A DNA stretch of 64,000 bases from Octopus vulgaris (taxonomy: Eukaryota), in NCBI GenBank assembly GCA_951406725.2, contig OX597835.1, forward strand, positions 45,756,001 through 45,820,000, written 5' to 3'. How positions within the stretch are numbered: position 1 is the stretch's first letter; each line of letters starts with the position of its first letter. The notes beneath the pieces were generated by a model that did no database searches, was not told where the DNA came from, and was given only the letters and a program-made list of their open reading frames with translations. Positions 5,181 through 58,189 of the stretch are shown here, in pieces. A program made the translations under genes and the position numbers.

Positions 5181-5905
5181 TAAATGACTCGCTTTGAAGT
5201 TTTGCATTCGGTACAATTTGTTTATTTTAGTAGTTTTGACTGCAAAAGTCCCTCCTAGCGTGCGGTACCTATGAATAATAGTACCCTCTATATAATATAG
5301 ATAAGTATTTTCAAAGTTGAAAAAATTTACAGATTTTTTCTCTTACGAGGTTTTTCACGCTAACTACTGATAATTTCTTATAAAGATTTTATCCTTATTT
5401 TTGAATTTATATTTTTCACCGGAATAGTTCAATACTGAATTTTTGTTCCGAGTAGGCAAGTTGTTACCGAAATGCATTGCGAAAAAGCCCGACATGTTCA
5501 TAGATATGTAAAAATATACATTCGTACATGCTGCGGTGAATTCTACGGTTGGTTGTTGGGTATGTGATGTTGTGTTTTTTCTTATATGTCTTGAGTTCGT
5601 TGCACGGAAGAGCATAGAATGCATATTCTGCATTGATTGCGAAATCACAGGTGATATGTAACTAAATTCTGTTTTTAAATGACTCGCTTTGAAGTTTTGC
5701 ATTCGGTACAATTTATTTATTTTAGTAGTTTTGACTGCAAAAGTCCCTCCTAGCGTGCGGTACCTATGAATAATAGTACCCTCTATATAATATAAATAAG
5801 TATTTTCAAAGTTGGAAAAAATTTACAGATTTTTTTCTCTTACGAGGTTTTTCACGCTGACTACTGATAATTTCTTATAAATATTTTATCCTTATTTTTA
5901 AATAT
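5181..5905 (+). mobile_element. Non-coding partial-tandem module (495 bp period) with hammerhead
   Basis: 5181-5405 nearly identical to 5676-5902; 3' end runs into (TA)n; truncates the preceding R4/Dong fragment. Confidence 0.75.
5599..5662 (+). ncRNA. Type I hammerhead-like fold, U4G core variant
   Basis: GTTGCA-CGGAAGA-GCA..TGC-GAAA-TCAC ag GTGA-TA-TGTAAC; all three stems form. Confidence 0.65.
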
Positions 5906-5925
5906 GATATATATACATATTTAAA

Positions 5926-6081
<156 letters not shown>

Positions 6082-6668
6082 CCATATATATATACCACAC
6101 ACATATACATACTCATACACACACACGCTTACACACATGCACATATGCAGACTTAGAAAAGCAGGGATTGAATAGTCCAGGGGAATACTTTATAAGCCCT
6201 CTACAGAAATCAGACTTCCCTTATTATATTGTGTTGTAAATGGTACAGTAATCCACTTGGAGGGTAAATTCACTTTCTGGCACCAGTCCAGTTTGTATAT
6301 CCGAAGTGTAAAAAATAGCAGTTTAGTGTAAATTCTGTACATGGTCATAAATTATAATAGTGAAACACAAAAAATGGAGATTTATGCGTGAAAGAGATAG
6401 CTTTGTACGAAAGAGAATGATATAACTTAAAATTCTACAATGCATTATTTATGCATATTTATTTGATCAAATATGACATTAATTAAATATTCAGGAATGA
6501 TGCATATTGAAGTCTGTTATTTTGTTTGAAACGTATGTAGCTAATTAAATCATGAATTAATTTCCAATTTTTTTTGTGTCTTGTCTATATAGATATGCAC
6601 ATTCACAACTACGTGTAGTGCATAATTTTGAGAATTAAATAAATAAATAAGTAAATATATATATATAT

Positions 6669-6805
6669 ACAACTGCAACGTGGAAGGTGTTTATAAGCTA
6701 TTTAAGAAACCGTTAGATTCGCTTCCACATATAAATGTAATTTTTCAGAATATTTTCGTCGCTTTGAAACTGCGATCTGTTCACTGCCAAAATTCCGTGC
6801 TGCAC
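6669..6805 (-). mobile_element. Diverged copy of the G3-C8 hammerhead module family
   Basis: Homologous to 47733-47880 and 56331-56615; minus strand retains GTGAACA-G-atcgc..gcgac-GAAA-ATAT-TC; follows a short (TA)n. Confidence 0.75.
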
Positions 6806-7023
6806 ATAATTTTGCCTGGAGGGTATATCAGCAGAAACGTTGTGTTAACAACAAACAAGATGAGGACAAATATCCATCAAATATAATAATGTAAATTATG
6901 TAAATAACGTACATACTTCCTCATCTCTCAAATATTGAACTGTAAACGTATTAATATTTAGAAGCATAGATTTAAATCTATAGGTAATAAATGTACGTCA
7001 GTTTTAAGCGTTATATTATTATT

Positions 7024-7165
7024 ATATGTTTGGCTTTTCATTTGTATTTGTACAAGTTGACTCCAAGTATCATCCAGAGACCTCAAGAGAGAAGTTAAAA
7101 GATCAAGTCGGTATACCATAGGATACCATATTTTTCGTTTAGCCCTGAGAACCCTGAATCACTTT
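7024..7165 (-). mobile_element. R4/Dong-like 3' end fragment
   Basis: Similar to the 3' termini at 15253 and 21197 (TTTGTACAAGTTG..CAGAGACCTCAAGAGA). Confidence 0.6.
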
Positions 7166-7280
7166 TTCATCCGTCTCTGCGTTCTGAATTCAAATTCCGC
7201 CACGGTCGACATTGACATTCAGTCTTTCGGAGTCGATAAATTAAAACATTGAGATTGATGTAATCGACTTGACCCATCCG
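7166..7280 (-). mobile_element. Meta/MESC-type SINE fragment
   Basis: TTCTGAATTCAAATTCCGCCACGGTCGAC..TTTCGGAGTCGATAAA resembles the 38.2 kb family body; orientation and ends approximate. Confidence 0.5.
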
Positions 7281-7539
7281 TTTGATGAGGCTACAGACAG
7301 AGACTTTCCTTTTTTGCCAAACCATCATCAACTTTTTCAAGTTTAAGTTGAAAAGGAAGTTGATGGTGGAGAGAGAAGTGTTGCCTTGTAGCAAGTTTGT
7401 TGAAAGGTGGGTAAATGTTGGAAGAATGGCCAGTGGGAAAGGACCAATTCTAAACGTGCACCTGTAAAAAAAGAGAAGGGTTCTTGCCATGTTGTCCATG
7501 TTGTTCCACGAGCACCTTAAAGCGCCTCCCCTATTGGGA

Positions 7540-7801
7540 TAAGCAGCTGTAGTCGATGAAACATGTGGTAGTAGTACGAATTATTGTCGGAGCCCTGGGA
7601 ACAGCGAAGGAAAGTCTTGAGAAGAACATGGAATAAATAGGGGCTGCAATATGGGTGGAACCCTTACTGAAAATAGCACTGCCTGGAACTGCTCGTATAC
7701 ACCGGATGCTCCTCGAAAAATAAGGGGGTGTTACATTAATTCGCTGGAAGTGAACAGCTGGCACCGTAGTACATCTCCAGTGTTAGAAGCTGTGCAAAGA
7801 C
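7540..7801 (+). mobile_element. R4/Dong-like REL endonuclease C-terminus and 3' UTR
   Basis: VVVRIIVGALGT..LKIALPGTARI motif; ends in (TAA)n. Confidence 0.75.
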
Positions 7802-8260
<459 letters not shown>

Positions 8261-8262
8261 TA

Positions 8263-9171
8263 GGCTAGAAGTCCACTCATCAGTGGCTTCGGAGCTCAGG
8301 GCTAAAGGCAGAGAGTTAAGAAGTTGTTTCCGCTGGTCAAGATCAAAGTTTATTGATCCAAAATTACCTCACCAGTTTGATGAAAATGGATTAGACCAAA
8401 AGTGCCGATATTGCAACGAAGCGATTAAAAAACATTGGATCACCTAATCTCTGGATGTAAAGTTTTAGCACCCATAATGTATAAATCAAGATATATACAG
8501 AGTTGACCAATAGCTACACTAGTTAATATGTCGGCTTCACAAATCAAAACTGTTGACAAGTTGTATGATGACCGACACCAAGTTGTTAGAGAGGGAGAAA
8601 ATATAACGATTCTGTGGGGCACTCTAATACGTAATACAGAACGATCAAAGTTAATTTACCGGACATTGTTATGAAAGACTAAAACAATAAACTTCGTATA
8701 TTGATCGATTTTAGCATTCCTTATAATCACAATATTTCGGCAAAAATATTTAACGAGCTCATAAAATATAAAGATTTCCGTATTGAAATCGAAAACATGT
8801 CATATCTCAAGACATTTACAATTCCAATGGTTGTAGGAGCATTGGGAATAATCAAAAAAGGAACTGAACATTATTTTAGATTGACACATGTTTTACCTTT
8901 CCTGCAAGAAATGTAAAGATTGTTTTAACTGGTATTTCACACGAATTGAGAAGAGCATTGTCGGTGACAGAACGATTTCTAACTGTGTGATTGAATATTT
9001 TAATTGTTTTAAATTTTTCATTTCTTTACATAACAGCATTTCATTTTGGAACTGAACATTTGAGGTGCTTAATCTAATAGCCTATCAATGTATATATTGC
9101 GTTTCTTTGCCCAAGGAGTCGGGAAGACACTGGACATGAAATGGAAACAAAGATGAAAGAAAAAGAAAATC

Positions 9172-9172
<1 letters not shown>
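8263..9172 (+). mobile_element. R4/Dong-like fragment (CCHC finger, REL endonuclease, 3' UTR)
   Basis: KCRYCNE, IDFSIPYNHNI..KYKDFRIEI..TIPMVVGALG; bounded by TAA-type repeats. Confidence 0.85.
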
Positions 9173-9246
<74 letters not shown>

Positions 9247-9269
9247 TATACTTATTATTATTATTAAGA

Positions 9270-9709
9270 AAATACTTGTATACTGAGATATATAAATGTT
9301 CCCACTGATAAGAATATATGTCTCAAGGAATTTGACAAACTAATTAAATAAAAGGACCTGGAAATTAAAATACAACGCATGTTGTATATTAAAGCGAGAA
9401 CTGTTAATGCTATTGTAAGTACCCTAGGTATGATAAAAGAAAATATTAGAAATATCTAGAAACATATATTAGAAACATCCCAGGAGAACCTTGTCTCAGA
9501 GAAATCCAAAAGATTGTGCTGACAAATGCTGCCCACATCCATAGTAAAGGCCTTTCCATTTAAATGTCTGTGATGTATTAAATGAAGATATTTCACTACT
9601 TCCCTCCCCAAGCTTTCAGTAATACTGTAACATCCGTTATCCTTCACTCACCCCAAGACACTCGGTTTGTTTTGGCAAGCGACAGTAAGAAACATGCAGA
9701 TTAAAATGA

Positions 9710-9712
<3 letters not shown>
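9270..9712 (+). mobile_element. R4/Dong-like REL 3' fragment
   Basis: VPTDKN..KDLEIKIQRM..IVSTLGMIK; ends in (TAA)n. Confidence 0.75.
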
Positions 9713-9790
<78 letters not shown>

Positions 9791-9791
9791 T

Positions 9792-9940
9792 AGGCACTAC
9801 CCACATCCTACGCAGAACACTTTCCATACAATAACCATCAGAGCATCACAACAAATCACAGCACATACCCAAGGCACACAGAGCTGCGCTCGGTAGTGAA
9901 GTGAAAGCACGCTATAAAAATAAAAATAAAACTACTGAAT
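9792..9940 (+). mobile_element. R4/Dong-like extreme 3' end
   Basis: GTTHILRRTLSIQ-stop plus short 3' UTR between (TAA)n tracts. Confidence 0.7.
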
Positions 9941-9971
9941 AATAATAATAATAATAATGATGATGATGATG

Positions 9972-10060
<89 letters not shown>

Positions 10061-10062
<2 letters not shown>

Positions 10063-11242
10063 GTAGGTGATAGCATCACCTTGGTATGGAGCAGGAGTTA
10101 TAAGAGAGGGGTGATGAGAATGGATAAGATGAACACAAAAATGTCGAAAGTACACGGAAACTTCCACCTTAAGAGTGACATGGATAGACGGTACTTGTCC
10201 AGAAGAAAGGGTGGGAGAGATGATTTTATCGGTTGCCAGTACTGTATTGAAGTAAAGGAAAACAGCTTACGGGGGTATATGACAAATGTCATGGAGCCAC
10301 TTTTGAAATACACGAAAAAGGCCGGTGTGATCAAAACTGAAAAATTGTGTAATGAAAGAATAGTTCAAATAATTTAACCAAAAAGAAAAACTGAAATAGG
10401 GAAGGCATGGAAAGAAAAATGTAAACTCAGTTTGCAAGTGATGTGAACGCGAAGATACGAAGACCTTTGGCTATGGATGAGGAGGATTGACCTGAAGATA
10501 GAGACAGAAGCACTCATATGTGCAGCTCGAGATCAAGCGTTAAGGGCCAACTATGTGAAATGCGGAATAGACAACATTACCGCGATAGCGACAAATGCAG
10601 AAAGTGTGGGGAGAAGGATGAATCAGTATTCCACATTGTTAGCAAATGCCCGAAATTGGCACAACGTGAATACAAGAAACGCCATGACAATTTGGTAATA
10701 AGGATCCTTTGGGAACTCTGGAAATCACGGTCTACAAAGAGCAAAGACGTGGTATGAGCAAATTCCAGGAGTCGCTGAGAAAGAGAATTTCAAAATCCTG
10801 TGGGATTCAATGATCGAGTGCGATTACCGGACCAGACATCGTAAACCGGACATTGTTGTGGTGAATTAAAAAAAAAACACATATGATAATCGACATAGAA
10901 TTCCCCAGTGTTAACAAGATCAATGTGAAAGAGAAGAAAAATAGACAACTCTAACGATTTGAAGTAGGAAATACGAAGGTTGTGGTCAATGAGGAGAGTA
11001 AATGTGATACCAATAGTAATTGGTGCACTTGGAAATATCAGTACTCAACTAACAGAATGGCTGAAAAAGATCGGTGCAAGTGTGAAGGTAGAACACCAAC
11101 AATCATCATTGCTTGGAACTGCAAGAATTCTTTGTACGGTTCTTGAAGCATGATCAGGAAATAAGTAGCACCATAGTGTGCTGGCTGTGGACAGCTGACA
11201 CATTCCATCATACCCAGCAAAATAAGCAGAGAGTTTGCATCA

Positions 11243-11243
<1 letters not shown>
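10061..11243 (+). mobile_element. R4/Dong-like fragment (post-RT, CCHC finger, REL)
   Basis: HLKSDMDRRYLSRRKGGR, ETEALICAARDQAL, KCRKCGEKDESVFHIVSKCPKLAQREYKKRHD, PIVIGALG; flanked by (TAA)n. Confidence 0.9.
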
Positions 11244-11317
<74 letters not shown>

Positions 11318-11334
11318 CCTATAGACATTTATGA

Positions 11335-12800
11335 CTTTGAGCATAAAATGACAAGAGATCTAATTTTAGACTTAATAATTATGAATACGTTGGTAATATC
11401 AATATTAAGGAAAACGTTTTTATAAATAAGAGCAAGATTAAATAAATGAAGATTACCTGGTATAATGCACAATTCGCATCTTACATAGCAACTAACATTC
11501 CTCGGAAATTCTTTGCTGTTCTGGATAAATATTTCCCACGTGGAAGAAAGTACAGGAAATTATTTAATCGCCAGAGAGTAAAGTTGTTTTTTTTTATTCC
11601 ACGACCAGGCAGATAGTGTAAGTTGTGAAATTGAATCTAATGATAATTTCCCTGTAGCAGTTTAAGTAAAAGTAATTTCGACTGTGAAATTGATGGTACC
11701 TTTCAGATAAAATCTAGTAATAATATTTATTATGATGTTAATAATCCCGCTTTAACACCCACCTCTGAGAAGGGGATTAGTACTAATTCCTTTACCCACG
11801 AGAACAGCATACGAATGAATAAATATCATTGTAATTTCAAAGATCAAAATTATCCGTGCGTTAGAAAATCAGTGTTTAAAGAAGAATATCGTGCATCAAT
11901 GGATGCTCATTAATTGGGGTCGTACGTATTATTGCAAAGGTTCTTCTGCTATAATTTGCAAACCTAGATTTAAGTCTAGTATAAAATGTAATTCTACGAA
12001 CTTTAGTAAATGCAGTTGAGATTTAACATACAGAAACATTAACTATACTAGCAAGTGGTCCCTTATTATTTATGCACCAAGACTGTTAATTTTTAAAATA
12101 ATGTTTGCATTTAGGAATTGCATTACATAAATACTTCGAAATTAGAATTTTTAAGTTATTTAAATAATTTTACATTGAAATGTCCTCATAAAAATTGAAA
12201 AAGATATTTAAATATTTCAATAGTAAATAACCCATTAATTATGAATGCTTTTCCAATAATCTAATACTCTTATTGTTTCTAAAACATTTCTTAGCATATT
12301 TAATAGATAACTAATTGATGTGATATAGAATTTTTGTTAATTTTTTCTCCTCCCGTTATCTAGTGACGTCATCAACAGCCAAATAAATATAATTGCTTAT
12401 TCTATAATCTAATATGCTTAATTTTTATAAAACATTTTTAGCATATTTCATAGATAGGCAACTAATTGACGTGACGTAGGATTTCAATATTGTTTTTTCT
12501 CTCGTTATCTACTGACCTCACCAAAAGTTAAATACTAAATTGGCTTTTTTTAGAATATTGTATTTCTTCTTAAAGTTCTTTATGTTCGTGTGCGGGAGAT
12601 ATTTTCTTACTTCACTTTGAATTTAGCCCACTTTGAATTGATTTGATAACGTTGTGCTAGCATATATTTGCGGATATATGAAGTTACAATATGCCTGCAT
12701 TTTTGTTTATAAATACGCTGGCACAATATAAAGGGCCGTCAGGAATGCATACTGTAATCATGAATTAAAGATATGATTTTCTCCATTCTTATTCTTGCTT
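11335..12800 (+). mobile_element. Decayed Penelope-like element (Naiad-like) 3' part
   Basis: 11450-11585 reads KITWYNAQFASYIATNIPRKFFAVLDKYFPRGRKYRKLFNRQRVK, resembling the PLE linker WFNPP..TNIG..F..L..KHFP..KIFNR..VK; ~150 bp internal repeat 12283-12400/12432-12548; ends in (TA)n. Confidence 0.6.
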
Positions 12801-12881
12801 TATATATATATATATATATGAGACATATTTGTATCCAGAAGACCGAACGTGGCAGGTAAGGCTATATGTATGTATGTATGT

Positions 12882-12930
<49 letters not shown>

Positions 12931-12954
12931 GAGAGAGAAAGAGAGCGAGATAAC

Positions 12955-12985
<31 letters not shown>

Positions 12986-13070
12986 ATAGATAGATGTAAA
13001 AAATGTAAGTGTCGAGCACAAGGAACGAGTGTCCGACATCGTATTGTTGGATGATGATTCTTTATTTGTG

Positions 13071-13114
13071 TATTAAGGATACCATTGGTTTCATGCTAAG
13101 AGAATGCCTTAATA
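13071..13114 (-). ncRNA. Hammerhead remnant lacking the CUGANGA box
   Basis: Minus strand TATTAAGG..AGCAT-GAAA-CCAATGG-TA-TCCTTAATA: stem I, GAAA and near-palindromic stem III present, core box absent. Confidence 0.4.
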
Positions 13115-13187
13115 TCTATGTGATTGGCTGGAAAAGTTAAGATATTTTCTTAACAGGAAAGCAATGATAGCCTTAATAGGAGGAAAA

Positions 13188-13230
<43 letters not shown>

Positions 13231-13251
13231 CGTGTGTGTGTGTCTGTTGGC

Positions 13252-13252
<1 letters not shown>

Positions 13253-13345
<93 letters not shown>
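13253..13345. repeat. (GATA)n microsatellite
   Basis: Directly visible. Confidence 0.97.
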
Positions 13346-13367
13346 GTAGGTAGATATACACATATAT

Positions 13368-13544
13368 GATAGATCGTTAGCCACTACACACATTTTCCCT
13401 CCTTGTTTCTCTCGTTGTTTTTTTTTCGTGTACCTTTTTGTAGAAAAGCGTAGGCTCGAAACGTAAAATACTTTTTCTATTCCTGAGCGTTATACTAATA
13501 CATGTGTTTGTTTTGTACACCACCTGTCTTCGTAAACTTTCCCT
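13368..13544 (+). mobile_element. PLE 3' terminal repeat with minimal hammerhead variant
   Basis: Homologous to 29858-30048; TTT-TTGTAGA-A-AAGC gtag GCTC-GAAA-CG-TA-AAA at 13435-13468; between (GATA)n and (TA)n. Confidence 0.7.
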
Positions 13545-13563
13545 ATATATATATATATATATG

Positions 13564-13644
<81 letters not shown>

Positions 13645-14050
13645 TATATATATACACCCAAATACACACAGACGCATGCAGACACAAACACACACATACA
13701 TACACACAATCGTGTGGATATACTGGGATTTCATGCGAATTCCTTTCTTCATATCGAAACTCGTATCGAATGAGGAGCAAACGCCACGTTGATTTCATGT
13801 TCTTCATTAGTCATCGGTTATTACTCATATTCTTCAATTTAATCGATAACTCCACAACCCACCCGGCACACAACATTTCAATGTATAGCTATATCCATTT
13901 ATCTTCTATTTACAAATATCGAACGGGTCTATATTACCTTTCATCCTCGCTAGTTCAACGTAATAACTATCAGTCAAGTACTGGATCGATATAATTGACT
14001 TGCACACACACACCCATAAAATCTATCCTCTTACGCCCATAACAGAAACA

Positions 14051-14097
<47 letters not shown>

Positions 14098-14110
14098 GTT
14101 ATTATTATTA

Positions 14111-14300
14111 AGGCGGTGCACTGGCAGAATCGTTAGCACGTTGGACGAAATATTTAGTGGTGCTTTGGCCATCGCTCCATTCTGAGTTCAAATTACTCCG
14201 AGGTCGACTTTGCCTTTCATCCTGTCAGGATCGATAAAATACGTACCAGTTGAATATTGGGGTCGATGTAATTGAATCATCCCCTCCTCCCAAATCGGTG
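14111..14300 (+). mobile_element. tRNA-derived Meta/MESC-type SINE
   Basis: GGCGGTG..CTGGCAGAATCGTTAGCA head; GTCGACTTTGCCTTTCATCC..TCGATAAAAT..GTACCAG central domain. Confidence 0.8.
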
Positions 14301-14363
14301 CCGTTATTGTTGTTGTTGTTAGTGTTGTTGTTGTTGTTCTTCTTCTTCTTCTTCTTCTTCTTC

Positions 14364-14463
<100 letters not shown>

Positions 14464-22172: not shown

Positions 22173-22262
22173 ACATCAAGCCATCAATAATTGGTGTACA
22201 CATACATAGACACGCATACACATACATACATATATATATTACACAACACTACCCCACTGAAT

Positions 22263-23539
22263 ATGGCCAATAATTTTCAAAAACGCCGCTGGGTTGAAAA
22301 TGAAATTACTGCAATGATTAACGCTTGGTTCATCCATCACAACGAAGCTAATGTTTATAGCAAAATAACTGAGGATTTAACGAAAAAATCCTTTCACAGA
22401 TCTGTAAAACAGATAGAAAATAAATTAAAAGAAATTGTTAGGATATTCCCTATTTTTCACGCGCACATGGCTACACTAAAAGCCATTCTTGCCAACGAAT
22501 TCAGTACAACAAATGACCAAATCCCAACAGGTCAGTGGTCACTTCAACAGCAACAATCAACTGACCTACTTCCATTGACAACAGCACCTGATGAACCAAG
22601 TCAAGTCTCACCTTCGCTACAGCAACAAAAACAACAACAACAACAACAACACTCTAATACTACCACTAGTCAAGTTCCAATGCTGCTACAACTCCCCACT
22701 ACTGCCACAATAGGAAAATCACTACTACATCCGCGTAAAACTATCTGCCACTACTACTCTCAAGGCAGCTGCAGATTTGACCACATACTGGCAAGCCAGA
22801 ACCCACCATTACAAAATCAACAAGCTGCTTCTAACACCACCACCACCACCACCACTACAACTACTGCCAAAATAGAAAAACCACTACTACAACCAAATAA
22901 AACCCCTGCCGTTACTATTCTAAAGGCACTTGTAGATTTGGCCCCAGCGGCACAAACAAAAATGGACGCTGTGCTTTTCCCCACCCGACCTTATGTCGTA
23001 GACTTGCTATGGGCACCTGTCCATACGGTATAACAGGAAAAAATTGCCCCCACCTCCACCCCAAATACTGTCCTAAATACAGAATCTATGGTTCTGACCC
23101 TAAATACGGATGCATAAGAGGCAATGGATGCACCTTATTCCATCCTAAACTGTGCCAAACTTCTGTCTCACAAAGGATGTGCCTGAACCCAAAATGCAAC
23201 AACCACCATCTGAAGGGCACAAAACGATCACAGAATAGATATGAACAGGAACAGAGGAAATCTAGGACAACAACAAGAACAAAATACAACCACGTTTCCC
23301 CTCCTACAATCAAACTACGTAGACAGAACCAGGAAAAAACACCAAATAACGCCAACTTGAAATATGTATCCTCTGACCAAGTGGCAAACCAAACAAGTAA
23401 CTCTTTTTTACTGACATACCTGGAAAATATGAAGGCCGACCTAAGCCAGGAGATCCAGCGAGCCATCACCAACCATCTATGCAAATCACAAGGACCACTC
23501 ACCCATTACCAACTTCCCTTACCTCGACATTCCTGTTAA
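22263..23539 (+). pseudogene. LINE ORF1: N-terminal Myb/SANT-like domain, Q/T-rich linker, CCCH zinc-finger array; frameshift near 22900
   Basis: RRWVENEITAMINAW..YSKITEDL..RSVKQIENKLKEI; a frame change at AAATAAAACCCC restores CRYYSKGTCRFG..CAFPH, which joins ORF 23009-23539 with three more CCCH units. Confidence 0.75.
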
Positions 23540-23576
23540 ATGTACGTGGCATCAACCCATCAATTATTGCCCAAAA

Positions 23577-26477
23577 ATGGAAGATCCCATATATAGAGAG
23601 TTGGCTTGCCGAAATGGCACATTGCTTCCTTTCTTTATCCTTACCGAGACTCACCTGAACAACACCCATATGGACGCAGAGGTGAAAATAAAAGATTTCA
23701 CCATTGTTCGTGCGGATCGCACAGACCGAAATAAGGGAGGGACAGCCATCTTTATCCATGACTCCTTTTCACTTGATGTCAAGGACGCATTTTCCAATGG
23801 CTACTGTGAATCGGTATCAGTATACAACAAAGCCAAGGACATAACCATTGTTGGTCTTTACAGGCCTCCCCAGGCACCTCTAAAGTACTTTGAAGAGTGC
23901 CTTAGCAAAGTCAAGTCCTTCCTTCGGAAGTACCACTCCGGAAACATAATAGTGATGGGTGATTTTAACCTCCCTCATGTGAACTGGCCCACAAATACTC
24001 CGAAGTTAGGCAAGTGCTCTACATCAGATAGGGCAGCAGCAGAACTGCTCTTTAATCTGATGGATGAGTATTTCCTGACTCAGCTAGTGCTTGAACCAAC
24101 GAGACAGAATAAAACGATCTTGGATCTGGTACTGACCAATCACTCTAGCTACGTTCACAGCATTTCAGTCGAAAAAACTCTCCTCTCAGACCACGACATG
24201 GTACTCTGCAATCTTAATTCCCGACGTATAAAAACCAAACCAGCCAATCCCACTCCATGGCACCCATTTGACAACATAAATTTCCACAAAGCGGACTGGG
24301 GAACAATCAGAAAGGATCTGTCTTCCATCGACTGGTCTTTTACTCTTAATTCCCCTCATATTGAGACCGCGTGGCAGCACTTTGAAACCATTGTCACCGA
24401 CACATGCTCTAAACACGCTCCCAAGAAATCTACTAACACAAACAGGAACCGGCTCCCTAAAAAGAAAAAAACACTCATCAGGCGCATCAAAAGACTCAAC
24501 AAAAAAATCAACCTATTAAAATATTCCCACACGCAACATCCACATTCAACAACAATGAAAAGACTAGAGCTGGAAAAACTTCATCTGCAGACTAACATGA
24601 AAACCTCCATTGAAAATCAAAGAGCTGTGGAGGAACAATGGGTAATCAAAAACATCAAACAGAACCCAAAAGTGTTCTATTCTTATGCAAATAAGCATAT
24701 AACCACTGTCTCACCTATTGGGCCATTGATTGATGAAAACGGCATTATCCAACACGATGCTAAAGAAATGGCAGAAATACTGCAGAAACAATATTGCTCT
24801 GTCTTCAGTGTTCCCACTGATATTGATGTGAGGGAAACGAACGAAGCTGACTCCCAACACAAAATCGCAGACATAACCTTCACTGCCACCGACATCGTAG
24901 CAGCAATAAATGAGGTCAAACATTACTCTGCTGTAGGCCCTGATAGATTTCCCGCCAGTCTCCTGAAGGAATGTAGATATCAACTTGCAGTCCCTCTGAC
25001 CAACCTCTGGAGAAACTCGTTAGACGCAGGTTATATACCGAAAAAGTTTCTATCCCAGTCGGTCATCCCGGTTTTCAAACAGGGAAACAGATCCCTCGCA
25101 GTCAACTATCGCCCAATCTCACTCACCTCCCACATCATTAAGGTGTTTGAAAGAGTGTTAAGATCAAGGATAGCTGACTTCCTGGAGACCCACAAACTCC
25201 TAAATTCAAATCAGCATGGCTTTCGCTGTGGCAGGGACTGTCTAACACAGCTCTTACACCACATTGAAGATGTACTCAAAGCCTTGGGAACAGGTTCGAA
25301 CTCTGACGTCATATACCTTGACTTCAGTAAAGCGTTCGACAGGGTAGACCATAACATCCTACTCTCAAAATTGGCAAATGTTGGAATCCGTGGAAAAGTT
25401 CTACACTGGATTCAGTATTTCCTAGCGAATAGAACACAACATGTTGTAGTTGATGGAGTCCACTCAAACGGTGTTCCCCAGGGAACTGTTTTGGGTGTTT
25501 TGGGTCCGCTACTCTTCATAATTTATGTAAACGACCTTTCCAGTGTCGTACATCACTGCAAAGTGAAAATATTCGCTGATGACACTAAGCTCCAGCAAAT
25601 CGTCAATGAAGAAGCAGACCGAACTCAACTCCAGTCTGACCTATATGCTGTGAGTCAATGGGCAGACAGAAACAAAATGCAACTGAATGAGGGAAAATTT
25701 GAGCTGATGCATTTTGGAAGAAATTCCTCACTAAAACAACCATACTCTCTTCCTTCAGGGGAACCGCTCACAGCCTCTAACAATATCAGAGACCTGGGTG
25801 TAATTGTTGATGACGATCTCAGTTGGAGTGCACACATCAACAAGAAGGTCGATACAGCTCGTAGGATGAGTTCCTGGATCTTAAGGACTTTCCGGTCCAG
25901 AGAACAAGGTGTCATCATACCACTTTTTTCATCCTTTGTACGGCCACACCTTGAATACTGCTGCCCACTGTGGTCTCCTCACACAAGACAAAACATCTCC
26001 AGAATTGAGTCACCCCAGAGGGCTCTCACTAAACAAATTGAAGGCATGGCTGCTCTCGATTATTGGGATCGCCTTAAAGCCTTGAAACTTTACTCCCTCC
26101 AGCGTCGCCGTGAGCGGTACATCATTTGTACGATGTGGAAAATATACCGCCAACTTTGCCCAAACGACCTAAACATTAGCTTCAAGGTTCATCCGAGACT
26201 TGGACCACGGGCTATACGTCCCCTGCCAAATTCAAGATCACAACATACGTGTACACTGCAACATAATTTCTTTTCCTCAACAGGCCCTGCCCTATTTAAC
26301 ATTGTCCCGAGGGAGATCAAAGAGGAAAAGGATCCCATCAACTTCAAACAGAGTCTGGATAGATTCTTTCAAAGAATACCAGATAAGCCACCCATAATTG
26401 GATACAACTCACCCAACAAGAACTCACTACTTGAACAAAACTGGATACAACTCACCCAACAAGAACTCACTACTTGA
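23577..26477 (+). CDS. LINE ORF2: APE endonuclease and reverse transcriptase (probably defective)
   Basis: 966 aa ORF with LTETHL, GDFN, LDLVLTN, SDH, NYRPISLTS, YLDFSKAFDRV, GVPQG, FADD, RPHLEY; the N-terminal LLNVRG motif lies upstream in another frame. Confidence 0.92.
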   Translation: MEDPIYRELACRNGTLLPFFILTETHLNNTHMDAEVKIKDFTIVRADRTDRNKGGTAIFIHDSFSLDVKDAFSNGYCESVSVYNKAKDITIVGLYRPPQAPLKYFEECLSKVKSFLRKYHSGNIIVMGDFNLPHVNWPTNTPKLGKCSTSDRAAAELLFNLMDEYFLTQLVLEPTRQNKTILDLVLTNHSSYVHSISVEKTLLSDHDMVLCNLNSRRIKTKPANPTPWHPFDNINFHKADWGTIRKDLSSIDWSFTLNSPHIETAWQHFETIVTDTCSKHAPKKSTNTNRNRLPKKKKTLIRRIKRLNKKINLLKYSHTQHPHSTTMKRLELEKLHLQTNMKTSIENQRAVEEQWVIKNIKQNPKVFYSYANKHITTVSPIGPLIDENGIIQHDAKEMAEILQKQYCSVFSVPTDIDVRETNEADSQHKIADITFTATDIVAAINEVKHYSAVGPDRFPASLLKECRYQLAVPLTNLWRNSLDAGYIPKKFLSQSVIPVFKQGNRSLAVNYRPISLTSHIIKVFERVLRSRIADFLETHKLLNSNQHGFRCGRDCLTQLLHHIEDVLKALGTGSNSDVIYLDFSKAFDRVDHNILLSKLANVGIRGKVLHWIQYFLANRTQHVVVDGVHSNGVPQGTVLGVLGPLLFIIYVNDLSSVVHHCKVKIFADDTKLQQIVNEEADRTQLQSDLYAVSQWADRNKMQLNEGKFELMHFGRNSSLKQPYSLPSGEPLTASNNIRDLGVIVDDDLSWSAHINKKVDTARRMSSWILRTFRSREQGVIIPLFSSFVRPHLEYCCPLWSPHTRQNISRIESPQRALTKQIEGMAALDYWDRLKALKLYSLQRRRERYIICTMWKIYRQLCPNDLNISFKVHPRLGPRAIRPLPNSRSQHTCTLQHNFFSSTGPALFNIVPREIKEEKDPINFKQSLDRFFQRIPDKPPIIGYNSPNKNSLLEQNWIQLTQQELTT

Positions 26478-28650: not shown

Positions 28651-28804
28651 TGCGTATGTGTTATTTTGCTTTTCATGTGTACGCATATATAGAAAGCAAT
28701 TTCATATCACTATTTCTAAAGACCATTTTAATGTGTTTTTACGAAGAAAATTTTCGGGTTACTCGGAATCACCTAACAAGTCAGTCATTGTAAATGCTTT
28801 CCTC

Positions 28805-28843
<39 letters not shown>

Positions 28844-28984
28844 ACATATGTGCATCATATGTGTGTGTGTTCATATATATTGGTATCTGGGACGGTCAAC
28901 TGCAAGACTTAAACAGAAATATAGAATCTCTAACAAAGTGTGTCACTGTGGACAATCTATCAGCAATTAATTACAGACGCTTCT

Positions 28985-30048
28985 CCTACTGCTCTCCTAC
29001 TCTCTCTGCCTTTTTTCTATACATCAAGCAAATGGGTCGTCGCTTGGCTCACCGGTTTACGGAACACCATCGAACCCTCCGACTCGGCAATGACACCCTA
29101 GTCTCGCACCATTTCCACTCTACCGGTCATTCTTTGCAACACCTGCCTGTATTCAGATTGTCCTTGCACAGGGACCATACGGACTCCCGTTTTCGACAAG
29201 AACAGGGATTAATCTCTCTTCGCTCCTATGCGCCACATGGGCTCAACTCTCCTCTCCTCTTCATCTACTTCCTCCCACCCACTCTCCTCTCTTGCTCCGA
29301 ATCCTACTTCTACTCTTCACTCCTATTCTCCTTCTCTCTTCTCTTCACTACTACCCACCTTCCTCTCTCCTATCATCGTCACCCCTCCCTCGTAACCCCA
29401 CCCGTACACAATGCAAACCCCACCTTCCCTATCCATTCTATCCCACCCCCACTCCTACATACCCCATCTCTACCCCCACCCTTAGCTTAACACACATACT
29501 CCCACCTCTTCCCCCACCCTAAACCCCATCCACACCCCACCCTTGCTTTCCCCACTCTCGCCTCTACTACATCCTAACACCACCACCCCACCCCACACAC
29601 CACCAGCCATACACCACCATACCACACAACACCACATCACACCACCAGGCACAAATTAGCACTGACCACTTTGCAGCCCCTAACCATCATGTACATACCT
29701 ACACATACAAATACGCACGCGTCAAGCCCTCTTCCACACGCAGATAATGCTCTATGATACACACGCACGCGCACCTTAGTTTTGGGATCACCACTACTTT
29801 ATTATCTCCCCTTCTTCTAAGCCCTCCTGTGTGTCTCCTTCTGTCCGGTATTCGCCATGATAGATCACTAGCCACTACACATTCTTTATTTTCTGTCCTT
29901 GTTTCTTTCTATGTTCCTTTCTGTGGAATACCGTAGGCTCGAAACGTTAAATACTTTTTCAATTCCCGAGCTTTAAACTAATACATCTGTTTGCTGTCTA
30001 CACCACCTGTCTTTGTCTTTTGTTTTTTTTTGGTGAATTCTCCCCTAT
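28985..30048 (+). mobile_element. Penelope-like element 3' part: GIY-YIG endonuclease remnant, C/A-rich UTR, terminal repeat with hammerhead variant
   Basis: YIKQMGRRLAHRFTEH..VSHHFHSTGHS..RFRQEQGLI..APHGLN is the PLE GIY-YIG signature; hammerhead-like TTT-CTGTGGA..GCTC-GAAA-CG-TT-AAA at 29918-29951. Confidence 0.85.
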
Positions 30049-37586: not shown

Positions 37587-37927
37587 TAAATATTAGGGAA
37601 TAAATCCAAATTTACAGGGAAAAAATCAGATTTAGGATTAAATCCAATTTTATAGTAAAATATTATAAAATATTATTAGAGACAAAACCACTATTTTGCA
37701 AAACAAACAAGGAAAGACTTAATCAATACATAAAATTTTAATAAATAGTCAAAAAATATTCTTAAGACTCTTGGTTCCACAAAATATCATATATATTTCA
37801 TATATATTTTGTGGAACCAAGAGTCTTAAGAATATTTTTTGACTATTTATTAAAATTTTATGTATTGATTAAGTCTTTCCTTGTTTGTTTTGCAAAATAG
37901 TGGTTTTGTCTCTAATAATATTTTATA
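37583..37927 (-). mobile_element. Fold-back PLE-like module with perfect 124 bp inverted arms
   Basis: 37664-37787 is the reverse complement of 37804-37927; unpaired tail 37583-37663 is homologous to the reverse complement of 55745-55826; (TA)n on both sides. Confidence 0.85.
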
Positions 37928-38247
37928 TATATATATATATAATGAAAGTCGTTTCCAGTAACAATCGAAGAATACTTAATTCGTTGGTCACTCATGTGTC
38001 TGTGAGATTGCGGTGATTGATGCAAACAAATTAGTTTCGCTTCACAGATATTTGGAGTTTATTGCTCTTAACTCTGAATCGATGCAAAGAATGAATATAG
38101 ACGACAGAGTGCGTTGAAATGTCGTGACTCGATATAAAATCTTTTCAGGGTATGACAATATACATTTTAACGATATCATTCCAGAAAGCATTTCATATAT
38201 ATTTTGTGGAACCAAGAGTCTTAAGAATATTGTTTTTTTTTTATGTA

Positions 38248-47680: not shown

Positions 47681-47734
<54 letters not shown>

Positions 47735-47816
47735 CAATTGCAGCGTGGAAGGTGTTTGTAACCCATTTAAGAAACACACAAAAAGCCGTTCGATTCACTT
47801 CAACATTTAAGTTTAA

Positions 47817-47866
47817 TTTGTCAAAATATTTTCGTCGCTAAAATCCGCGACCTGTTCACTGACAAA
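47817..47866 (-). ncRNA. Type I hammerhead, G3-C8 variant
   Basis: Minus strand TTTGTCA-GTGAACA-G-GTCGC..GCGAC-GAAA-ATAT-TT-TGACAAA. Confidence 0.72.
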
Positions 47867-47888
47867 AATCCGTGCTGCATCTCGGATT

Positions 47889-47938
47889 TTTGTCAGTGAA
47901 TAGGTCGCGGATTTTAGCGACGAAAATATTTTGACAAA
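47889..47938 (+). ncRNA. Type I hammerhead, G3-U8 variant (mirror copy)
   Basis: TTTGTCA-GTGAATA-G-GTCGC..GCGAC-GAAA-ATAT-TT-TGACAAA. Confidence 0.65.
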
Positions 47939-48094
47939 TTAAACTTAAATGTTGAAGTGAATCGAACGGCTTTTTGTGTGTTTCTTAAATGGGTTACAAA
48001 CACCTTCCACGCTGCAATTGTTTTCGTTTCAGCACACGATCTCAGATCAAGTCACTTGCTATGCGAGTACACCTCCGAAATATATATATATATA

Positions 48095-49660
48095 TAATAA
48101 GGATTCAGATAGAATCGGAAACTTGAACTGATTTGGAGAGACCTGTGTTTACTGAACAAATGTAAATGCATATATAAAGCCAGTGAAGCATAGGGTCGGA
48201 GTTTAGGATTCGTTACCTAAGACTAAAGAACTACGTCGTGCCGACAGAGATACAGAATAGAGGGGTGTTCTCTGGATATAGGTTGAATTTTGGGCGGAGG
48301 TACGAAGGCAATCAAATTTTAAGGTCTCTTAAGGAATTGTAGTGTTATGTGCGAGTGATTTATGTGGTTAAGTGGAAAGATGTAGGTTATATTGAATGGT
48401 GGACACCACTTGAAATATGAGGACGGGTTTGCCAGGAGAGGAAATACCTGGTAGTAATGCCACTGCACTACTTGTCATTAAGGAGTTGAAAGAAAGAAGG
48501 GCTTATGTAATAGACTATACTAGTACTACTAGTACCGAGTTAAAGGAAATACCAGATCGGATATAAAAAAAACAGCAATAGGAAATTGTCTAATGAATAA
48601 TAGTTTTGAATGCTATATAAGTGTTGTTCTTATGAATTAATTAGATAGCATAATGTGTGAATGAGGTAATGCAACTCTGGACAATAGTCGCGCCTAAGAG
48701 GTTTGGATAGCGTGCTCCAGCTATCATTTAAGATGTGCAGCACAAATAACTGTATCTTGGTATAAGGATTATTTACTTAGTGGAATCGGAAAAGAACTGG
48801 ACTAGTTGTGCAGGCTGCAACCTGTAGGTTAGATATTTTACCTATTGTTAATACATAATACTAAGTACACCACAAATAGAATGGTTAAGTCCTTCAAAAG
48901 AGCATAGCATGCAAATATAGTAAGGGTGGTTAGGAAGTAATGGTAAAGAAGAACGAGACTAGACGGACTTATACAATTAAGCAGATCAATCGGCTTTTAG
49001 GCCAACAATAGAGGGAGTAAATTTGACTTACCCTAGGTTAGGAGCTATTATAGAGGTTGTTTAATGTCCTTAATTATGTAAAACTGACCTTATGTAGACA
49101 GGAAAGACAAAAGTCTAGTTTATATTTTATTAAATTTTCGATGTCCCAACTCAAATCAAATTTGACATTGTCGTCCTTCAGTTCCCAAATCTTTGTTGCT
49201 GGAGAAGTTGTGCCTGTGCTATGTCTTAATTTAAAGGAAGAATAGTTGTTACGCATGGGCTGCTTGAGATTTTAAGAGCAGCCAATATAAGTATAAGTAT
49301 TGGTCTCCGTCACAACATTACATTTGTAAACTACATTTATTGTTAGCCATCGACCAGAAAGTGGACATGAGATTTTGTCTAAACAATTGCACCCAATATT
49401 TTCCAAGACTTGAAATTTATTATCACTGGTACACGATCCTACGTTATTATGGCGTAATAGTTCAAGCTCGCGAGAGTTATCGGTGTTTGTAGGGTTGTTA
49501 CCGGGGTTTATATCACTAGGATCATGACTATTATAATTAGTTGCCGAGCCCAGTGTCGGAGAAAGTTGATGCTGAGAATTGCCGAAAGGGATTTGGCTTT
49601 CAGATGGTGGCACTAGAGGGATGTGAATGTGTGCTGTAAGGGGAGGATTTTCAGCACAAG
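48095..49660 (-). mobile_element. Decayed Penelope-like element (Naiad-like): Cys knuckle, GIY-YIG and long 3' UTR
   Basis: ORF 49272-49613 CNCLDKISCPLSGRWLTINVVYKCNV..TYIG; ORF 49074-49256 RNNYSSF..KIWELKD..LSWDI..C..CL; 3' end at (TA)n. Confidence 0.85.
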
Positions 49661-55221: not shown

Positions 55222-55292
<71 letters not shown>

Positions 55293-55422
55293 TATATTAA
55301 ATTAGAGATAAAACCACTATTAGGCAAATCATACAATGAAAAGCTTAAGCCAATACATAAGATTAATTAAGTTATATTATTTTAAATATATATCAAAATT
55401 ATTAAAAAAAGATAATTAGTAT

Positions 55423-55489
55423 AACACTACGATCGTTTCATGGCTGTCCAATTCTTAAAATTTCGAGTTACAGTCATTCTTCAGGTGAT
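55423..55489 (-). ncRNA. Type I hammerhead, canonical core (left arm)
   Basis: Mirror of 55551-55612 with a longer stem II loop. Confidence 0.78.
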
Positions 55490-55550
55490 TGAAATATTTA
55501 ACTTAGCGAGGTTTAATCAATGAATAAACCTCGCTAAGTTAAATATTTCA

Positions 55551-55612
55551 ATCACCTGAAGAATGACTGTAACTCGAATTGAATTGGACAGCCATGAAAC
55601 GATCGTAGTGTT
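55551..55612 (+). ncRNA. Type I hammerhead, canonical core
   Basis: ATCAC-CTGAAGA-ATGACTGT..ACAGCCAT-GAAA-CGATCG-TA-GTGTT; palindromic stem III, GUA triplet. Confidence 0.8.
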
Positions 55613-55822
55613 ATACTAATTATCTTTTTTTAATAATTTTGATATATATTTAAAATAATATAACTTAATTAATTTTATGTATTGGCTTAAGCTTTTCATT
55701 GTATGATTTGCCTAATAGTGGTTTTATCTCTAATTTAATATAATATAATATTTTACTATAAAATTGGATTCAATCCTAAATCTGATTTTCCCCTGTAAGT
55801 TTGGATTTATTCCCTAATATTT

Positions 55823-55894
<72 letters not shown>

Positions 55895-55983: not shown

Positions 55984-56330
55984 TAAAACTTAGATGAAAA
56001 CTTAGATATGTTTCGACCAAAGATTGGTCCAGGCCATGTCTAACTTAATAGCACCACCTGATAGGATTATCTAAATCCTATTGAAGCCAAGTTTTGTTTA
56101 TGGTCCATTCAAGTAGTGAGTTCTTGTTGGGTGAGTTGTATCCAATTATGGGTGGCTTATCTGGTATTCCTTGAAGGAATCTATCCAGACTCCGTTTAAA
56201 GTTGATGGGATCATTTTCCTCTTTGATATCTTTCGGGACAATGTTAAATAGAGCAGGGCCTGTTGAGGAAAAGAAATTATGTTGCAGTGTACATGTATGC
56301 TGTGATCTTAAATTGGGCAGGAGACGTATA
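55984..56330 (-). mobile_element. 5'-truncated 3' end of the CR1-group LINE
   Basis: IRLLPNLRSQHTCTLQHNFFSSTGPALFNIVP..NKNSLLEW matches the ORF2 C-terminus at 26210-26435; same 3' UTR and tail. Confidence 0.93.
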
Positions 56331-56615
56331 TACAATTGTAGTGTGGAGGATATTTAAAAGCCATTCAAGAACACACAGAAACCGTTAGTTTCACATCAAC
56401 CTCCCTTTGCAAATACCCCAAGGGCACTGAAGTGGTGTCTAAAGCCAGCTGGAGACGACGATCTCCTGGGGCTGTATAGCTACAGTAACACCCCCTCCTC
56501 TATTTGGTTAGCCATATTAAGATGGCTTCTTTACTTTACATTTAATTTTCATTTGTGTCAAAATATTTTCGTAGCTTTCAAACAGTGACCTGTTCACTGA
56601 CAAAATTGGCGCTGC
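56331..56615 (-). mobile_element. Copy of the G3-C8 hammerhead module, interrupted by a ~140 bp insertion
   Basis: Homologous to 47733-47875; minus-strand fold TGTCA-GTGAACA-G..GAAA-ATAT-TT-TGACA at 56556-56602; foreign segment 56401-56539 ending in TTTACTTTAC. Confidence 0.75.
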
Positions 56616-57088
56616 TTCTGACAGAGTGACAGTTACTTTATAAGATATATATATGTATGCATGTATGTATATATGTATGTGTGCAAGTATACATGTATGT
56701 ATGTATATGTATACGTGCGCATGCATGCCTATACGCATGTACGTGAGTATGTATGTACGTACGCATGTATCTGAGCGTTTACGCTTGTATGTAGACTAGT
56801 CTGCGTGTGTGCATATGTGTATGTACATGTAAATGTATGCTTATGTAGTGATATGTGTGTCTGTTCAAGTTGTGTATATAACTGTCTCTCCGTCGAAGTT
56901 TGTATATATATATGTTCCTTTCATCGCCGTCTAAGAGTGAATAGATACAATGTCTTAGATACATACAAGCAGATATAAACATACCTATACATATGTAGAA
57001 GCACACACAAAAATCTACGCATAATCTTACAGTATATTCACAGACAGCGGCGAACCCGAACACTTTTTTGTATTTTACATAGACATAG

Positions 57089-57154: not shown

Positions 57155-57470
57155 ATGCATGATGGCCGTCCACTGGTGACCGAGGAATACCATTGCCGAC
57201 CTTCAGGAACATTATGCGCTCTAGGACTAACTTATATTTTGCATTTGCGGCTCCGTTGGTGGCTAACGAACCCTGCTCTTGACAAGCATACACGTCTGCA
57301 AACATTGCAGACCAAGCTTTCCCCATTCACTATACGAGCCGTGCACTTTCGCGCAGCTCGCTTAAGTTCTTCATGCTGGATACGTGCTCACTCAAACGTG
57401 TCGATCCCCTCCTTAACCTGCTTCCTCCATCTGTAGCGATGACAGGCATTGTTCTCCCAGTCATTGTCTC
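57155..57470 (-). mobile_element. RTE LINE 3' end
   Basis: Minus strand encodes C.VCRRVCLSRAGFVSHQRS, the RTE C-terminal C2H2-like motif, then a short UTR ending at (TA)n. Confidence 0.75.
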
Positions 57471-57866
57471 GTAAATGATGTCCTATCTGAATCTCAGTGT
57501 GGCTTCCGATCTGGTAGAGGGACAATGGATATGATTTTCACAGCAAGACAGATGCAGGAGAAGTGCTATGAGCAGAATATGGATCTTGTCCAGGTATTCA
57601 TTGATTTAACTAAGGCTTTTGATACTGCAAATAGGACCTTTCTATGGAAAATACTTGGCAAACTTGGATGTCCGGATCACTTTGTATCTATAATTAAATC
57701 ATTTCATGATGGGATGGAGGCTTGGGTAAATGTTGGTGGTGCCATGGCGGGACCCATTCCTGTAGAGAATGGTGTCAAGCAGGGTGACATCCTTGCCCCA
57801 ACTCCTTTTCTTTGTACTTTGCTGATGCTCTTACTAAGGTTAGCTCTCTGGGAATACATGTCAGAT
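57470..57866 (+). mobile_element. RTE LINE RT fragment (inverted relative to the 3' end)
   Basis: ESQCGFRSGRGTMDMIFTARQMQEKCYEQ..FIDLTKAFD..GVKQGDILAP. Confidence 0.92.
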
Positions 57867-58189
57867 ATATATGCATATATATATACATACATATACATAC
57901 ATATATGTACATGCATATACATACTAATACACATATACACATACATACACAGATGCTAAAATACACAAACATCTACACATACGCACATATATATATCAAT
58001 CTGGGTACATTCATATAACTGCTTATAATTACATATATTTCTATATCACGCATCTCAACATGTATATATGAATTTCTACATTTCAGTGAGAGAAAGGAGT
58101 GATTATATAGGCTTCTTATTCCCATTCTTTTCCAAATTAACTCCTTGTATTGACCTCTACTATTTCTCTGTATGTAGCCATATCACATC

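Follow-up and report, generated by a model that had tools for sequence, protein, structure and literature searches.

The palindrome at 47733-48080 of the window, by which we mean the whole 64,000-nt stretch of Octopus vulgaris DNA analysed here, carries in each arm a motif resembling a hammerhead ribozyme, and in one of them G and C stand where C3 and G8 are expected (G and U in the other). It raises the question of whether this double change marks a natural ribozyme family kept under selection for self-cleavage, as an earlier note on this DNA had proposed. The reading we favour, with a probability of roughly 0.6, is that the locus is one copy of a high-copy non-coding repeat, a putative non-autonomous derivative of the pLTR of a Penelope-like retroelement, with G3-C8 throughout the family and a predicted weak self-cleavage. 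The Penelope-type origin together with family-wide G3-C8 is on its own highly probable, and given these two, it is rather likely that cleavage has been retained.

Structure of the palindromic locus

The window is AT-rich animal DNA laden with microsatellites. The parts of the palindrome and of its immediate surroundings are the following.

47686..47732, no strand assigned: left (TA)n target
47733..47883, minus strand: tail-less repeat unit, up to the family's fixed 5' end at 47883, its 3' end abutting (TA)n
47817..47866, minus strand: minimal type I hammerhead motif with a G3-C8 core, by fold and descriptor
47866-47860/47823-47817, minus strand: stem I of this motif, with the core at 47859-47853 and the extra G at 47852
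47851-47847/47838-47834, minus strand: stem II, with GAA at 47833-47831
47830-47825, minus strand: palindromic stem III, with U17 at 47824 and the predicted cut 3' of U17
47884..48022, plus strand: second unit, inverted and head-to-head with the first, its 5' end about 12 nt shorter
47889..47938, plus strand: mirror copy of the hammerhead motif; G3-U8, from T at 47901, is the sole difference between the arms
48023..48080, plus strand: optional 3' extension (the tail), about 57 nt, on the plus-strand arm only
48081..48097, no strand assigned: right (TA)n target

The 140-bp arms (47733-47872 and 47883-48022) are paired with a single mismatch, 47854/47901, which is hammerhead position 8, as the earlier note had reported. 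The core reads GUGAACA on the minus strand at 47859-47853, 6784-6778 and 56597-56591, and GUGAAUA on the plus strand at 47896-47902, so that the note's three loci and its mirror arm were all recovered. Both arms have a stem I of 7 bp, an extra G after A9, a stem II of 5 bp, GAA, a palindromic AAUAUU and U17, arranged in each arm from the centre outward. The 5' boundary at 47883 agrees with loose ends and joints in sequencing-run contigs.

Read-through RNA of either strand is predicted to form a hairpin of -254 kcal/mol, and the sense motif always lies downstream of its own complement. Since there is one sense hammerhead per strand, placed behind its own complement, this locus cannot supply the dimer; the palindrome would trap the ribozyme in the read-through RNA, and the locus is likely to be silent as a ribozyme. 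Both arms share at 47993 a letter found in only about 5% or less of the family depth, from which we infer that they came from one template, and the rare family letters common to both arms make it most likely that U8 appeared at the time of insertion or later. The mismatch, which the earlier note had pointed out, is thus probably a private decay of this locus. The palindrome itself appears to be ordinary Penelope insertion geometry with nothing special about it, and a special meaning for it or for its mismatch is not supported: another, unrelated family is also arranged head to head in the window, at 55283-55826 (C3-G8) and at 37588-37932.

Fold, descriptor and model searches

The 50-nt motif of the palindrome folded with a z score of -3.4, which 1 of 200 shuffles equalled. 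A descriptor that allowed any letter at 3 and at 8 and required at least 5 bp in each of stems I and II gave two matches in the window, namely the two arms, and 0.083 matches per shuffle in 60 dinucleotide shuffles, none of the shuffle matches having a Watson-Crick 3-8 pair or a palindromic stem III. Stems I and II close the core into a three-way junction in both arms; in the two older copies described below they have decayed. The residues U4 G5 A6 N7, A9, G12 A13 A14, the A15.1-U16.1 pair and H17 are found in all four units of the window and are invariant except at N17. The literal C3 and G8 of the hammerhead consensus are absent, with G3 and C8 in their place and U8 in the mirror arm; position 3 pairs with position 8 in Watson-Crick fashion, as G3-C8, in three of the four window units and in the consensus of all four sequencing runs, and as a G3-U8 wobble in one arm.

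The extra nucleotide between 9 and 10.1, the G10.1-C11.1 pair and a palindromic stem III that needs a dimer are all present in the palindrome motif, and the predicted energy of a double hammerhead is close to that of two monomers (-28.8 versus -28.2 kcal/mol). An extra G is harmful in a viroid hammerhead. In the predicted fold G3 pairs with U17, and a G3-U17 or G3-C17 pair may lengthen stem I.

An Rfam search of a 91-nt stretch at an E value of 10 or less returned no hammerhead for the G3-C8 motif, and none was returned for the motif alone, which bears out the earlier claim that CUGA-based searches would miss it. For the whole window, no hammerhead was among the matches listed (150 of 191). 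A covariance model built from 14 coral-type Neptune hammerheads gave nothing significant in the G3-C8 motif; it missed even the canonical motif at 1481 and is therefore uninformative. DNA patterns open at positions 3, 7 and 8 gave 0 matches in viral, prokaryote and metagenome contigs.

Older copies and conservation of the core

BLAST of the element against the window found two older loci.

6669..6804, minus strand: older single copy of 78% identity with C17, ending in (TA)n; it keeps the G3-C8 core, while its stems are decayed
56332..56619, minus strand: single older copy, split in two, that keeps the G3-C8 core and has a decayed stem II

The copy at 6.7 kb has two stem I mismatches and A10.1-C11.1, fails the descriptor and has no hammerhead fold (z = +1.6). 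The copy at 56.6 kb consists of 56332-56400 (79%) and 56538-56619 (81%), separated by a GC-richer insertion of 137 bp at 56401-56537; it has two stem II mismatches and a 2-nt stem I insertion, and it likewise fails the descriptor and has no hammerhead fold (z = -0.7). The 7-bp stem I and 5-bp stem II that the earlier note had ascribed to the family are thus found in both palindrome arms, but not in these older copies, where the stems have decayed.

In a comparison with the left arm that covers these two copies, which were noticed partly through the core (one was picked partly for it), the core and stem III showed 0 differences in 32 positions, the 2-nt insertion being ignored in the stem I count of the 56.6-kb copy. 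The flanks of the 6.7-kb copy showed 15 in 89 (Fisher p = 0.011 against the core), and the 11 catalytic letters alone against the same flanks gave p = 0.039. When the less well aligned flank of the 56.6-kb copy was included, the flanks showed 28 differences in 127 positions (p = 0.001), and loop II showed 8 in 16. These counts are moderate evidence that the core has been conserved beyond its flanks and loop II. The earlier note had named a core no more conserved than its flanks as part of the outcome that would speak against its proposal, and the counts from the two copies point the other way.

The repeat family in sequencing runs

Contigs from 4 of the 24 listed runs, under three organism labels, were aligned to the right arm, tail and flank. 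The numbers aligned per run were 14,380, 1,186, 6,531 and 4,192 (4,192 to 14,380 per DNA-like run); run X11 may be of RNA. In one of them, run X1, the summed depth reached 3.7 million in comparison to 29.9 on the unique flank, where summed depth is not copy number and division by 31 corrects for word overlap. The depth divided by 31, together with three loci in 64 kb, suggests a repeat family of thousands of copies.

Loose ends before 47916, the point where loop II of the reference departs from the family and the run consensus loop II differs, carried G3 and C8 as consensus in 4 of 4 runs (104, 16, 71 and 64 contigs, with an agreement of 0.73 to 0.81). G3-C8 is thus, on the aligned contigs, a property of the family and not an accident of one copy. 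Variable places at a level of at least 4% numbered 21 in 47934-48065 and none in 47878-47933, a contrast that mapping bias may affect. The variant listing holds no C row at 47901 despite the C8 consensus of the loose ends; this position lies 9 nt from the alignment break at loop II and the smallest listed end distance is 10, so the absent row is likely an edge filter, and a common U8 subfamily may be another source.

The repeat unit is non-coding, about 150-200 bp long and set in (TA)n. Its fixed 5' end adjoins (TA)n, as 24 loose ends and a number of joints at 47883 indicate. The 3' end takes two positions some 57 nt apart, near 48021-48023 and 48077-48081, each followed by TA-rich variable sequence. 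The tail is optional family-wide, as seen from the depth over it and from joints that lead from 48021/48023 directly to the TA run. No reverse transcriptase (RT) or GIY-YIG open reading frame stood beside the repeat in the run contigs, where the loose ends are TA-rich variable flanks, and an autonomous element with this hammerhead did not turn up there or in the window. Head-to-tail tandem arrays of G3-C8 units were absent from the window, and run joints that lead from a TA run back to the 5' end fit either tandem units or plain TA flanks. Two other interpretations of the tail were rejected. Its final part is open in all three frames, but coding is made doubtful by a 1-nt deletion at 47971 that many copies share and by the loss of 11 nt from the 6.7-kb copy. 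Among the 15 of 25 joints listed, none had the matching ends expected of an intron that closes within the tail.

No C3-G8 relative was seen within the family, either among the window copies or in the run contigs, and 3-8 covariation can therefore be seen only against other families. The stems gave no clear compensatory pair in the few whole copies, where loop II varies and the stems persist; one compensatory candidate in stem II came from a single contig, and CpG decay gives the same change. Of the swap that the earlier note had proposed for the family, the family-wide G3-C8 holds in 4 of 4 runs, while covariation of the stems or of the 3-8 pair inside the family was not seen.

Neighbouring elements

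Two further hammerhead-bearing short elements, both C3-G8, lie in (TA)n within the window. The head-to-head element at 55283-55826, unrelated to the palindrome and set in (TA)n, has a one-sided tail of about 80 nt. Its hammerheads at 55484 (minus) and 55556 (plus) are canonical C3-G8 with an 8-nt palindromic stem III and A10.1-U11.1, and its arms differ mainly in loop II. A relative of this 55.3-kb family (82-88%) at 37588-37932 is likewise arranged head to head in (TA)n, as a perfect palindrome of 124 bp with a tail on one side, and has no hammerhead part. At 1159-1706, after (TA)n, there is a retrozyme-like partial tandem with a unit of about 425 bp and a 29-nt inverted stub, and a canonical type I hammerhead at 1403-1495 (minus) matches Rfam HH9 (E = 4.8e-5).

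The remnant of an endonuclease lies 0.9 kb from the palindrome and is given as context only.

48975..49400, minus strand: decayed Neptune-type GIY-YIG endonuclease remnant with 3 in-frame stops

A full HMMER search gave this remnant, which has an upstream Cys motif, 802 relatives at an E value of 0.001 or less, the best named one being an Octopus sinensis protein of 44% identity, XP_029636861.1, which carries the mistaken name 'myelin gene regulatory factor-like A'. A word-index protein search and Pfam gave no match, no relatives were found in viral contigs, and its 3' region showed no similarity to the repeat at the DNA level. The remnant is older than the palindrome, and (TA)n lies between them. 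A decayed frame at 28777-29490 (plus) contains words that we take to resemble the C-terminus of a GIY-YIG endonuclease, possibly another Penelope remnant; it had no Pfam match. An apparently intact LINE occupies 22191-26477 (plus), with pieces of a CCCH-finger ORF1 and a 1010-aa open APE plus RT frame, and an inverted 94% copy of its 3' end at 56108-56330 adjoins the third G3-C8 copy. The RT fragment of another LINE is at 57417-57959 (plus; Pfam RVT_1, E = 1.8e-13).

Proposed mechanism and alternative explanations

Under the favoured reading, an autonomous Penelope-like RT-endonuclease, probably of Neptune type, would nick (TA)n, and the uncut RNA of a master copy would be reverse-transcribed from one of two internal start sites, which would yield tail-less and tailed copies; by analogy with known Penelope elements, the tail would be the distance between the two sites. 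Priming on both target strands would place two cDNAs head to head, giving a palindrome with a one-sided tail. The G3-C8 pair would keep the geometry that places the 2'-OH of residue 8, the palindromic AAUAUU would pair two monomers as stem III, and the cut after U17 would be made only when two units pair in this way or a protein assists. Selection would then act on master copies and not on the palindromic locus. A bolder version is that the family crossed a two-transversion valley, fixed G3-C8 together with U17, and self-cleaves in vivo as a dimer or with protein assistance, in thousands to perhaps 100,000 copies; we hold this version tentatively, at somewhat under even odds.

Two of the alternatives would make the hammerhead likeness a coincidence. 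The near-perfect 140-bp inverted repeat and its TA target could be taken for a MITE or foldback DNA element, but two of the three loci are single units without inversion, the arms are asymmetric (in the one-sided tail and in a 5' truncation), the inversion joints in the runs lie at scattered positions, each in a single contig, and a hammerhead fold is rare by chance (0.083 per shuffle), so that this reading is largely refuted and we consider it barely credible. Similarly improbable, to a slightly lesser degree, is a tRNA-derived SINE on the other strand with a chance hammerhead look-alike. The antisense strand of the palindromic copy does hold words that resemble the consensus of the A box and of the B box. 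Many unclassified SINEs occur in octopus according to the portion of PMC13282606 consulted, but the repeat has neither a tRNA match nor a tRNA-like head, its B-box-like word is interrupted at 47964 in roughly half the family depth and is also broken in the two older copies, and an optional tail is a Penelope feature.

The remaining alternative accepts the same Penelope-derived repeat and holds that its hammerhead no longer cuts, the fold serving the mobilising protein as a signal for binding or folding, or being simply the legacy of few founding master copies. We regard it as unlikely, yet substantial enough to be weighed at length. As far as the consulted parts of the cited papers go, hammerhead mutations leave insertion in vitro undiminished in one Penelope system, in which uncut RNA is the main template (Frangieh et al. 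2024, PMC11167929), Naiad elements do well although they have no canonical hammerheads (Craig et al. 2021, PMC8557442), and a minimal hammerhead cleaves badly even when it has C3-G8 (Cervera and De la Pena 2014, PMC4209133). Every octopus copy seen begins 5' of the motif and upstream of the predicted cut. The extra G, U17 and a possible G3-N17 pairing are unfavourable; the extra G is rare (1 of 56 motifs), and the pairing may resemble the trap described for C17 in the part of PMC3884650 at hand. There is, in addition, no clear compensatory change in the stems and no C3-G8 sister family. On the other side, two transversions fall exactly on the 3-8 pair with complementarity restored, as is expected under selection on an active fold, and the remaining core letters are intact while loop II changes freely. 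The earlier note's claim of selection on ribozyme function is supported in part, by core conservation and by the partial rescue from an engineered C3G/G8C change (PMC11167929, in the part consulted), but not by 3-8 covariation within the family, of which none was seen. On balance the favoured reading, a Penelope-derived repeat that still cuts weakly, is retained.

Novelty and significance

The octopus motif is real and high-copy: a natural G3-C8 form, of predicted activity, of a ribozyme class already described, in an element of a familiar kind. It is probably unreported, although the literature consulted does not establish absence from print. That literature gave engineered cases of G3-C8 only: no natural one appears in the consulted parts of PMC6765202, PMC6155905, PMC7229834, PMC10085705, PMC6466107, PMC8490949, PMC6962438 and bioRxiv 10.64898/2026.07.22.740005, and hammerheads are unmentioned in the examined part of the Octopus vulgaris repeat annotation (PMC13282606), also by term search.

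Hammerhead censuses based on CUGA descriptors or on Rfam undercount. If the bolder version is true, an animal genome would hold an abundant natural G3-C8 hammerhead, part of a class that neither of these sees, and Penelope hammerheads would be under selection for catalysis although insertion uses uncut RNA, which bears on the open question of why poorly cutting hammerheads persist in Penelope-like elements when cutting is dispensable in one in vitro system. With both 3-8 partners changed yet complementary, the family is a natural version of the standard rescue experiment, and its thousands of copies would allow a strong test of selection on the catalytic fold. The surprise is limited, as the swap is predicted by structure and shown by mutagenesis, and a natural parallel, U3-A8, has been published.

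Comparison with known hammerheads and elements

To see how common G3-C8 is near Neptune-type endonucleases, we used as a control set 79 metagenome loci around such endonucleases (from the best 80 of 560 confirmed), 250 kb in all. The open descriptor found 20 motifs in 19 loci, several of them near-duplicates, and all 20 were C3-G8, so that G3-C8 is not the norm in that sample. In loci L010, L014, L032-L035, L040, L046, L057, L058, L068, L071, L073 and L079 the hammerheads lie directly 3' of the endonuclease. They depart from the usual minimal consensus in that stem III is a palindrome of 10 nt, position 17 is mostly A and the extra nucleotide is missing.

The closest published type, in the consulted parts of PMC4209133, is the minimal type I hammerhead of Penelope terminal repeats, which is defined by one additional nucleotide between 9 and 10.1, a G10.1-C11.1 pair and a stem III that is palindromic, and is found as dispersed copies and opposite-strand pairs 100-700 bp apart with weak, dimer-dependent cleavage. 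The octopus motif is alike in being type I with the extra nucleotide, G10.1-C11.1, a short palindromic stem III and U17, and its repeat likewise occurs as dispersed single copies and opposite-strand pairs; it differs in G3-C8, in having G as the extra nucleotide, and in having no ORF-bearing element linked to it so far. By our own count, among the 56 motifs of Fig. S3 of that paper 53 are C3-G8, 2 are U3-A8 and 1 is U3-G8, with G3 in none, and U17 occurs in 24 and G as the extra nucleotide in 1. The same paper describes a natural U3-A8 family in the Cercyon elements of Schistosoma, and Perreault et al. 2011 (PMC3088659, part consulted) give U3-A8 as the only natural compensated 3-8 change. U3-A8 keeps a pyrimidine at 3 and a purine at 8 and takes two transitions, in comparison to the inverted G3-C8 of octopus, which takes two transversions. 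G3-C8 is known as an engineered rescue from a review (PMC8495972), and G17 suits it better than C17 does (Kalweit and Hammann 2013, PMC3884650), both as far as the parts consulted go. The U17 of the octopus family avoids the G3-C17 pair and still permits a wobble; as G3-U17 is possible and U17 is common anyway, the argument from U17 is weak.

Non-LTR retrozymes, as treated in the consulted parts of Cervera and De la Pena 2020 (PMC7229834) and Li et al. 2026 (bioRxiv 10.64898/2026.07.22.740005), which propose pLTRs as their origin, resemble the octopus repeat in being short and non-coding, with a type I hammerhead and dispersed monomers. What defines retrozymes is their tandem arrays, their circular RNAs and hammerheads that are for the most part canonical; the octopus repeat is known from assembled contigs. 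The inverted 5'-truncated partner, one-sided tail and (TA)n targets described for Penelope elements in PMC8557442 (part consulted) have their counterparts at the octopus repeat, where an optional 3' tail, an inverted 5'-truncated partner and microsatellite targets are all present.

The most direct comparison is with PAc, a Poseidon element of Anolis carolinensis, for which the consulted part of PMC11167929 reports a protein that cuts and extends both target strands, reverse transcription from two internal start sites that delimit the tail, and a protein-assisted hammerhead in which C3G or G8C alone is dead and C3G/G8C is partly active. PAc and the octopus repeat have in common an optional tail, AT-rich targets and a hammerhead that precedes the 3' ends of insertions by about 100-150 nt. 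They differ in that the PAc swap is engineered, its element autonomous and its tail 30-40 bp long, while in octopus the swap is natural, the unit non-coding and the tail about 57 nt; the partly active PAc double mutant has the same 3-8 identity as the octopus motif.
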